Assembly (NCBI GenBank): GCA_965221705.1
Contig: OZ244908.1
Coordinates: 30,154-94,153, forward strand
Reading direction: 5' to 3'
Source: Dehalococcoidia bacterium
Lineage (GTDB): Bacteria; Chloroflexota; Dehalococcoidia; Bin125
Length of the DNA stretch: 64,000 nt
Shown here in pieces: positions 55,103-55,617 of the stretch. The notes beneath the pieces were generated by a model that was not told where the DNA came from, searched no databases, and saw only the letters and a list, made by a program, of their open reading frames with translations. Made by a program: the position numbers and the translations under genes. Each line of letters starts with the position of its first letter. Position 1 is the stretch's first letter.

Positions 55103-55175
55103 TCTGCAAGCCCTGATCTGCAGGGGCTGGCAATTCTCTGGCAAAGTCGATATCTTTGAATGCACAACTGAATAT

Positions 55176-55331
55176 TCGGGCCGAGTCCTCGTTGAGCCGG
55201 TCGGTCGATTGGCAGCGCGAGGAGCGGGGGACCCACCACTTTGGGGTGAATGCGGACATCGATTTCGATGACTGCACGGCGCACTCCTTCGCGCCGAACC
55301 CGTCAGCTAACCCCGTAGGCGACCGAGGGAG
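55176..55331 (+). promoter_or_regulatory. c-di-AMP (ydaO/yuaA) riboswitch
   Basis: Conserved blocks GAGCGGGGGACCCA, TGGGGTGAAT and CCGAACCCGTCAGCTAACCCCGTAGGCG match the ydaO consensus; loop ctccttc can pair with downstream gagggag (the known pseudoknot). Confidence 0.92.
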
Positions 55332-55366
55332 ACCCGCGTCTCAGCTGCGGCTGTCAGACGCGATTC

Positions 55367-55513
55367 AAGAACCCGTGTCTTGAGCACGGCTCCACCGGTT
55401 CGCCCAGCTGCTCTGAGCGGCAGTTCACCTTGCCGCCTCTGACAGCGCTCGGCCGCGAACGTGAGAGTCACGCTGGGAGCGACCGCCCGGCGCACTCAGG
55501 GGCACGGGTTTCT
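55367..55513 (+). ncRNA. Putative structured non-coding RNA (long irregular hairpin; 6S-like or novel)
   Basis: 55370-55384 pairs with 55495-55510 (G-U pairs work only on the + strand); 55396-55414 pairs with 55464-55485; inner hairpin gcggca/tgccgc; no credible ORF. Confidence 0.5.
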
Positions 55514-55541
55514 CGCTCGCCCGGCCCCGCCTCCTGGCCGA

Positions 55542-55573
55542 CCCCCGGACATCCGTCCGGGGGTTCGGTTTAT
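55542..55573 (+). terminator. Rho-independent terminator
   Basis: cccccggac-atcc-gtccggggg followed by ttcggtttat. Confidence 0.65.
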
Positions 55574-55617
55574 CCAGGCGACCAACACAGGGGCGACTGC
55601 GCCATCAACGCTCTGAG

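Follow-up and report, generated by a model that had tools for sequence, protein, structure and literature searches.

The window examined here, a stretch of 64,000 nucleotides (nt) from a Dehalococcoidia bacterium (contig OZ244908.1), contains a cyclic di-AMP (c-di-AMP) riboswitch that appears to head a structured non-coding RNA and not the leader of a protein gene. The same aptamer and the same covarying 3' module occur together in nearly every genome of the family, and we consider it highly probable that they form a genuine, conserved unit of riboswitch and non-coding RNA. Their pairing across the family suggests that c-di-AMP controls a regulatory RNA; that this RNA is a c-di-AMP-gated, trans-acting small RNA (sRNA) is a reading to which we give an even chance. 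Judged by its sequence, the unit in the window would be a self-contained non-coding transcription unit of ~410 nt at about 55163-55573 (+), with a putative promoter and a terminator. The genome that contains the window (G000) is a single contig of 2,440,725 bases (2.44 Mb). Its genus is referred to as g1 and the other genera as g18-g26, and G and L numbers denote genomes and loci, respectively. The family studied comprises 65 genomes in 10 genera, and the order holds the same 65 genomes.

The Rfam model RF00379 matches the window at 55169-55336 (+) over its full length (model positions 1-134) with a score of 83.2 bits, compared with a gathering score of 38 (E = 1.1e-18), and a genome scan shows this to be the sole match in G000. 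The two pseudoknot strands, ctccttc at 55284-55290 and gagggag at 55325-55331, can form 7 base pairs (bp), and relatives with the loop CTCCCTT retain the pseudoknot via G-U/G-C exchanges. The aptamer is thus a full, high-scoring member of the ydaO/yuaA type for which c-di-AMP binding is predicted, and the ligand can be made by G000, since the genome encodes one DAC-domain c-di-AMP cyclase. A cis-regulatory riboswitch would be expected to precede a protein gene on its own strand, but in the window no conserved ORF lies before the terminator of the RNA and the next gene is convergent. The arrangement is that of a riboswitch-regulated sRNA, with a 5' aptamer, no encoded protein, and its own promoter and terminator, all as read from sequence. 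A first-pass annotation of the window, made from the letters alone, had described a complete ydaO-type aptamer at 55176-55331 with the same pseudoknot pairing, a hairpin at 55335-55362, an intrinsic terminator at 55542-55573, small open reading frames (ORFs) on the + strand and a convergent next gene. Each of these elements was recovered, with RF00379 placing the aptamer boundaries slightly further out; the terminator has both hairpin and tail, even though a simple scan called 0 sites there.

The conserved part of the RNA is its last ~120 nt (55460-55580, +), for which we built a covariance model, R1, from 38 sequences (122 positions, 35 pairs). The window copy scores 125.4 bits against R1 (G000:C1:85613-85733). 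From 5' to 3', the module consists of hairpin A (55471-55492, with outer pairs 55465-55468/55494-55497), the sequence of which changes from genus to genus; a brief linker; hairpin B (55499-55528), with TCGCTC in its loop at 55509-55519; the single-stranded stretch GCCTCCTGG (55529-55537); and terminator T2 (55536-55570, core stem 55542-55550/55555-55563), followed by a U-rich tail, TTCGGTTTATC, that extends to 55573. Covariation was counted on an R1-fitted alignment of 64 matches with 59 distinct sequences. In this alignment 90% of the cells pair and 25 of the 35 pairs show compensatory changes, including 12 of the 15 pairs of T2, the stem of which varies in sequence although the U-rich tail is retained. 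The alignment has a covariation score of 0.375, compared with 0.145 in shuffled alignments (none of 500 reaches the observed value) and at most 0.12 when pairing partners are slid by 1-3 columns. An alignment fitted to R1 leans towards the structure, but the variety of pair types and the outcome of the slid controls speak for a real signal. All 59 distinct sequences have TCGCTC in the loop of hairpin B; CCTCCT is almost as constant, with part of g1 having CTTCCT or CCTTCCT.

Folding energies point in the same direction. The segment 55332-55580 folds on the + strand with -128.1 kcal/mol (z = -4.27, 0 of 200 shuffles as good), compared with z = -2.40 and 3 of 200 shuffles as good for the - strand. 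Pairs at the foot of T2 are GU in 42 and 38 of the 59 rows, which fits the + strand only. In 22 g1 species, the stretch of ~240 nt that separates the aptamer from the convergent gene has 96 invariant positions out of 242, mostly in the last 120 nt, and by eye the conservation looks tighter than that of the adjoining hydratase coding sequence. All 4227 models of the Rfam release gave no match at E < 0.99 for 55330-55620, with only terminator-like noise at E <= 10, and BLAST found no second copy of the module in G000. As judged by sequence comparison, the last ~120 nt represent a new RNA family or module. Within this structure, the hairpin-A loop AGCGAC could pair with UCGCU in the loop of hairpin B in g1, in g20 and in some of g26, but not in the other genera (by eye). 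A pairing of CCUCCU with the tail of the aptamer was considered and dropped, as no more than 5 bp can be drawn by hand.

With R1, the module is detected in 64 of the 65 family genomes and in all 10 genera, and RF00379 is present in the same 64 genomes. G053 (g18, 94% complete) is the only genome of the family without both aptamer and module. Every one of the 66 credible module copies has a same-strand aptamer 74-154 nt upstream (64 checked in sequence, and those of G012 and G048 by coordinates); the gap has a maximum of 138 nt in g1 and covers 74-154 nt in g21-g26. Two genomes, G065 and G072, have second copies of aptamer plus module. Exactly one RF00379 match is present in 48 of the 65 genomes, including all 37 g1 genomes, as already seen in the 24 g1 genomes drawn first (24/24). 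Searches that started from other directions gave the same picture. BLAST with 55337-55580 matched all g1 genomes and, in other genera, only a core of ~40-75 nt, and the 16 loci of other genera that were fetched from this search all have an RF00379 aptamer directly upstream. The aptamer is likewise present at 13 of 13 further R1 matches that were fetched, and absent from four weak ones (E >= 5e-4). In the rest of the class, R1 gives two weak matches in 144 other genomes, neither of them with an aptamer. An exact 21-base pattern searched across GTDB species retrieved 18 Dehalococcoidia/Chloroflexota loci and 7 others, and these 7 have no aptamer and score at most 17.4 bits with R1. The conservation and covariation of the downstream RNA, which the first-pass annotation had proposed as a check, are therefore borne out well beyond the genus.

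It is important to ask whether the module might code for a small protein. The + strand ORFs in this region, of 20 amino acids (aa; 55380-55442), 51 aa (55461-55616) and 96 aa (55430-55720), have no Pfam match. No conserved small ORF is found downstream of the aptamer in the relatives, where starts, stops and frames differ between species, and the g1 alignment has 1- and 2-nt indels inside its most conserved stretch. Together with the covariation and the G-U pairs of T2, the shifting ORFs argue that the module is a structured, non-coding, strand-specific RNA. The lack of an ORF after the riboswitch in g1 could also be explained by a deletion scar, i.e. a former mRNA leader that lost its gene and is now decaying, an outcome that the first-pass annotation had named as fatal to its proposal. 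We give this almost no credence: no relative shows a conserved protein gene directly after this riboswitch, 64 of 65 species retain the RNA, and neither the invariant positions and compensatory changes described above nor the second aptamer-plus-module copies in two genomes are what one would expect of decaying sequence.

The surroundings of the RNA differ between genera. In the window, the next gene encodes an enoyl-CoA hydratase (55618-56433; PF00378, E = 5.8e-57) on the - strand and is thus convergent to the RNA, forming a 3' boundary and not a part of the unit. A convergent hydratase follows in all 22 g1 loci first examined, and tblastn finds the hydratase as a neighbour in g20 and in 4 of 4 g18 loci tested, compared with 0 of 16 loci of g19 and g21-g26; in L068 it lies ~460 nt after the module. 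In g21-g26, on the other hand, 8 of the 10 loci tested have a same-strand YjeF_N gene downstream (PF03853, E = 1e-33 to 1e-37). These neighbours raise the question of whether the RNA is a cis element, acting as a long YjeF_N leader in some genera or through antisense or colliding transcription into the hydratase in g1, g18 and g20. However, YjeF_N starts at a variable distance of 6-600 nt beyond the terminator of the RNA, a convergent ORF often lies between the two, and a conserved, -10-like CATACT box is seen by inspection 6-7 nt before the ATG, suggesting that YjeF_N has its own leaderless promoter. These features argue that YjeF_N is not controlled by the RNA. Moreover, a covarying, GC-rich terminator and its U-rich tail close the module, neither neighbour is family-wide whereas the RNA is, and the only YjeF homologue of G000 is the usual bifunctional one, encoded elsewhere in the genome (35% identity). 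Since the neighbours change among genera, the RNA is neither the leader of a conserved gene nor a scar, and a cis element is a distinctly improbable explanation. The YjeF_N proteins of L079, L082, L078, L096, L097, L099, L102 and L106 are stand-alone proteins of the NAD(P)HX-epimerase type, with 276-288 aa.

Between the first hairpin and the module, the window has a genus-specific insert (55367-55459, +) that is seen in g1, is replaced by a different spacer of ~100 nt in g20, and is absent from g21-g26. The insert holds a small hairpin (CCGTG/CACGG), an imperfect helix (55388-55403/55454-55469) and a variable apical hairpin, and its 5' end (55368-55378) can pair with 55503-55511 to close a long helix at 55367-55513. 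The first-pass annotation had noted this ~145-nt helix and had considered a 6S-like decoy for RNA polymerase. The helix can indeed form in g1, where 93% of the cells pair, compared with 29-52% when the partners are slid. However, it is confined to g1 and g20, in g1 compensatory changes affect only 3 of its 23 pairs and are wholly missing from the closing stem (9 pairs), and it competes with hairpin B, which is family-wide. The closing stem is present in the centroid fold and not in the minimum-free-energy (MFE) fold, which has hairpin B instead; the two are mutually exclusive because the 5' arm of hairpin B is also a strand of the closing stem. The long helix is therefore not the conserved core, which lies in 55460-55580, although it may be relevant for g1, possibly as a conformational switch. 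A 6S-like substitute is conceivable inasmuch as RF00013 finds no 6S RNA in G000, but a control search detects 6S in only 5 of 14 genomes known to have it, making the missing match weak evidence. With no Rfam match, no compensatory change in the closing stem and a helix confined to so few genera, a polymerase decoy of this kind is very improbable. What stands of the original proposal of a riboswitch-controlled sRNA is a family-wide, covarying, riboswitch-headed non-coding RNA; its 6S-like form is unsupported.

Upstream of the aptamer, a putative + strand promoter consists of a -35 box CTGGCA (55127-55132), an 18-nt spacer and a -10 box TATCTT (55151-55156). In a 110-nt alignment of 39 loci from nine genera, TGGCA/TGACA and TAnnnT boxes are conserved at a fixed spacing 5' of the aptamer and are followed by a conserved CACAACTGAATA block that marks the start of the RNA, and transcription in the window would probably start at this block, near 55163. 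A promoter scan called the equivalent site in L068 (GTGACA-17-TAAGAT, 1120-1148), 12 nt 5' of the aptamer of that locus. Downstream of the aptamer, hairpin H1 (55335-55362, +) is present in both the MFE and the centroid fold and occupies the position of the riboswitch terminator T1 of the sister genera. Its stem varies in sequence yet keeps its pairing among g1 species, and a hairpin directly after the aptamer is present in 9 of the 10 genera. By eye, most loci of the sister genera have a U-tract behind this hairpin, as in a riboswitch terminator: it is clear in some or more of the loci of each of g18 and g21-g26 and weaker in g20, and two g25 loci have none. We also applied a strict script that demands a perfect stem of at least 6 bp and at least 4 T in 8 nt directly after the aptamer (35 g1 and 29 non-g1 loci), and this test recovers hairpin plus U-tract in 19 of the 29 non-g1 loci. 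The simple terminator scan called T1 in L080 and not in L096 or L068, because the loops of the latter two exceed the limit of the scan. Riboswitches in other families of the class have the same hairpin and U-tract, followed by an ordinary Shine-Dalgarno (SD) sequence and ORF. The conserved boxes and the hairpin with U-tract thus give a family design of promoter, aptamer, terminator 1, module and terminator 2. In g1, terminator 1 appears from the sequence comparison to have lost its U-tract, and a domain of 60-100 nt to have been inserted before the module.

How could such an RNA work? From the behaviour of characterised ydaO riboswitches and the terminators of the sister genera, we infer an OFF switch. 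At high c-di-AMP the aptamer would fold, the pseudoknot would close and transcription would stop at H1, leaving a short RNA of ~200 nt, while at low c-di-AMP, RNA polymerase would read through to give the full RNA with its 3' module. The module would then act in trans, most likely by base pairing via the exposed CUCGCUC loop and the anti-SD-like CCUCCU, both of which could pair with purine-rich sites such as mRNA ribosome-binding sites. In g1, where no protein gene is directly controlled by a riboswitch, the c-di-AMP regulon would thereby be extended. Trans action, seed and targets are inferred, but we favour a trans-acting sRNA because two pyrimidine motifs that are predicted to be exposed are the most conserved bases outside the aptamer and because most genera keep a terminator between sensor and module. 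Partition-function folds of 13 full-length RNAs are consistent with this idea, in that the loop motif has an unpaired probability of at least 0.89 in 10 of them, and CCUCCU one of 0.22-0.81, compared with an overall mean of 0.32-0.38. The RNA has a conserved motif that is predicted to be unpaired and an intrinsic terminator, the two features looked for in an RNA with an anti-SD-like seed.

Several observations weigh against a c-di-AMP-gated, trans-acting sRNA, in particular for g1. In the window, H1 at 55335-55362 is a candidate expression platform, but no U-tract follows and the next letters are GATTCAAGAA. Under the strict test, only 2 of 35 g1 loci (both marginal) and 0 of 2 g19 loci have a U-tract after the first hairpin, so ligand-dependent termination may not operate in g1, and gating is the weakest link of the proposal there. 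The simple promoter and terminator scans called no promoter and 0 terminators in this region of the window; T2 was probably missed because, with its stem extended by G-U pairs, only 4 T remain in the tail that the scan inspects. Nor is the seed invariant, although the CUUCCU and CCUUCCU variants can still pair with GGAGG via G-U. In addition, target searches were unrewarding. RNAduplex with loop or seed against 3412 crudely defined start regions of G000 gave no outlier (best values -26 and -28 kcal/mol, means -14, standard deviation 3); complements of the seed are not in excess in SD contexts of G000; start regions complementary to both motifs number 5, compared with 4.6 expected; and those of the cyclase and KamA-like genes are unremarkable (ranks 331 to 2146 of 3412). 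A two-site match at a gene for a substrate-binding protein with a twin-arginine translocation (Tat) signal (C1:595446-597485; identity as read from the sequence) is not conserved among paralogues, and was rejected because the conservation is that of a signal peptide at the protein level, whereas SD and codons vary and no RNA site is conserved. As these searches in G000 yielded no target, base pairing is kept here as a conditional proposal. Expression data are sparse: of four RNA libraries, two gave nothing, one only fragments of 20-40 nt, and one, a metatranscriptome labelled sponge metagenome, a single contig of 159 nt and depth 91, which represents the aptamer of a relative and covers only 55221-55332. 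Such contigs show neither ends nor strand, and the absence of any credible contig of the module from these four libraries is uninformative on its expression. As a separate observation, the gene at C1:595446-597485 belongs to a large paralogous set and shares the nearly identical, Tat-type-like N-terminus M[SAT][ED]RNYWQRM.R...SRR.L with genes in at least 11 other places of G000, and BLAST with 260 nt of its 5' end gives at least 11 matches in most family genomes.

The same observations give some room to a different view, namely that the RNA is a c-di-AMP buffer or sponge with a functional aptamer and a 3' part that only stabilises or terminates it. A riboswitch-bearing non-coding RNA without an ORF has a precedent in merRNA, as far as described in the available text (PMC3627812), g1 has no clear switchable terminator, and a single aptamer per genome is the rule in 48 of 65 genomes; the depth of the aptamer contig in one RNA library adds weak evidence. 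A sponge, however, needs no invariant loop or single-stranded motif 200 nt away from the aptamer, and these are precisely the most conserved bases outside it. The U-tract terminator between aptamer and module in most sister genera moreover implies two forms of the RNA, and we regard a sponge as rather improbable.

A second possibility is that the module acts in trans not by base pairing but as a decoy that titrates a regulatory protein, with the loop and the pyrimidine stretch as the protein site. This is how EutX of Enterococcus faecalis and Rli55 of Listeria monocytogenes serve as models, both B12-riboswitch-regulated sRNAs whose layout, in the available portions of the sources, is the same as that seen here (PMC13501541; PMC7266159). 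Invariant loop nucleotides on a covarying stem are typical of protein sites, and a decoy would be consistent with the fact that no base-pairing targets were found. On the other hand, no partner protein is linked to the RNA, the neighbours differ between genera, and an upstream 65-aa ORF, described below, is conserved only in g1 and g18-g20. Paired hexaloop hairpins of the ANTAR type are also lacking: inspection of the 59 distinct sequences shows that the loops of hairpins A and B are unlike each other and range from 4 to 12 nt. We regard a protein decoy as unlikely. Also unlikely, and more speculative, is that the 3' end of the module, a hairpin followed by single-stranded CCUCCU, imitates the 3' end of 16S rRNA and makes the RNA a ligand-gated, broad regulator of translation. 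At low c-di-AMP, such an RNA would compete for SD sequences or for a 16S-tail-binding factor; in a variant for g1, whose early terminator would have decayed, c-di-AMP would toggle the full-length RNA between long helix and hairpin B, giving an allosteric sRNA. If true, this would couple a K+/osmotic messenger to translation initiation by RNA, with no protein receptor.

To our knowledge, riboswitch-controlled non-coding RNAs are known for few ligands, i.e. B12 (EutX/Rli55), S-adenosylmethionine (SAM; SreA/SreB) and c-di-GMP (merRNA, a proposed sponge). In EutX and Rli55, ligand-dependent early termination decides whether the downstream module, which has its own terminator, is synthesised. RoxS/RsaE and 6C RNA are sRNAs with C-rich seeds that pair with SD sequences. 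The RNA of the window resembles the latter in being a short multi-hairpin RNA with unpaired pyrimidine- or C-rich motifs and an intrinsic terminator, but differs in having no sequence or model similarity to them in Rfam and in being fused to a riboswitch. With EutX and Rli55 it shares a 5' riboswitch on a non-coding transcript, the absence of a controlled ORF and a module with its own terminator. It differs from them in its ligand (c-di-AMP instead of adenosylcobalamin), in lacking both a dual hairpin of the ANTAR type and a two-component system linked to it, in its occurrence in Dehalococcoidia and not Firmicutes, and in an early terminator that in g1 is without a U-tract. The available text on merRNA of Bdellovibrio bacteriovorus describes a c-di-GMP riboswitch in a 445-nt non-coding RNA that is proposed to store or sequester its ligand (PMC3627812). 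Both RNAs thus combine a cyclic-dinucleotide aptamer with an RNA of ~400 nt and no conserved downstream ORF. The conservation found for merRNA is confined to Bdellovibrio, and massive expression is its defining feature, whereas the RNA described here is present in 64 of 65 species of a family, carries a 3' module that is separately conserved and covaries, and has an internal terminator in most genera.

Described c-di-AMP riboswitches, as far as covered by the accessible parts of two sources, are 5' leaders of genes for K+/osmolyte transport or cell-wall hydrolases (PMC7266159; PMC8079986). The RNA in the window has the full aptamer of an ordinary RF00379 riboswitch, and the usual order of aptamer and terminator is seen in the sister genera as well as elsewhere in the class, in other families; unlike the ordinary case, it heads a non-coding RNA, and no g1 protein gene carries this riboswitch. 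A 2026 review of signal-responsive sRNAs tabulates riboswitch-derived sRNAs, and the term c-di-AMP is absent from it (PMC13501541). Searches of literature full text, outside subscription journals and supplements, likewise gave no c-di-AMP riboswitch that controls, or is part of, an sRNA, and no riboswitch work on this lineage. The pairing of aptamer and module is not a one-off, being present in 64 of 65 species, and in 48 of them the genome has no other c-di-AMP aptamer. Should the module act in trans, an uncultivated lineage would read c-di-AMP largely through an sRNA. The module would then be a new RNA family and a route to the c-di-AMP regulon of an abundant uncultured group, as well as a natural design for ligand-controlled sRNA production.

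Other c-di-AMP riboswitches of these bacteria precede protein genes. A second one is located before a gene for a KamA-family radical-SAM protein of 474-556 aa in g18, g20-g23, g25 and g26 (L113-L120). The assignment rests on TIGR00238 matches with E-values of 2e-40 and 3e-33, which are below the curated cut-off of the model, and the protein may be a beta-amino-acid or osmolyte enzyme. The KamA-like orthologue of G000 (C1:1567660-1569078, L123; 87% identity) is without a riboswitch. Further c-di-AMP riboswitches precede a small ORF with a CxxC...CxxC pattern (zinc-ribbon-like) in L121 and L122 of the family and in L002, L026 and L004 of other families of the class, and in L121 and L122 an ORF resembling a LuxR-type response regulator follows ~1 kb further on; these names were given by eye from the translations.

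Finally, the upstream side of the RNA has features of its own. The 65-aa ORF (54905-55102, +), of unknown family and with no Pfam match, has its stop codon 25 nt 5' of the putative -35 box. By tblastn, it is 69-91% identical just 5' of the aptamer in the loci of 11 relatives (g1, g18, g19 and g20), and is missed in 3 of 10 g1 loci, 2 of 4 g18 loci and all g21-g26 loci searched; a functional link between ORF and RNA is possible. A tandem direct repeat at 55090-55125 (+), noted by eye, consists of ctgcaagccctgat, ctgcaagccctgat and ctgcag, and spans the stop codon of the 65-aa ORF. The protein gene upstream is divergent and encodes a 3-hydroxyisobutyrate-dehydrogenase-like protein (53627-54607, -), and beyond it are genes for a protein with a cyclic-nucleotide-binding domain (53038-53580, +) and a protein with an acetyl-CoA hydrolase/transferase C-terminal domain (51675-52970, +). 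Together with the enoyl-CoA hydratase on the other side, this places the RNA within a cluster for acyl-CoA and branched-chain catabolism.

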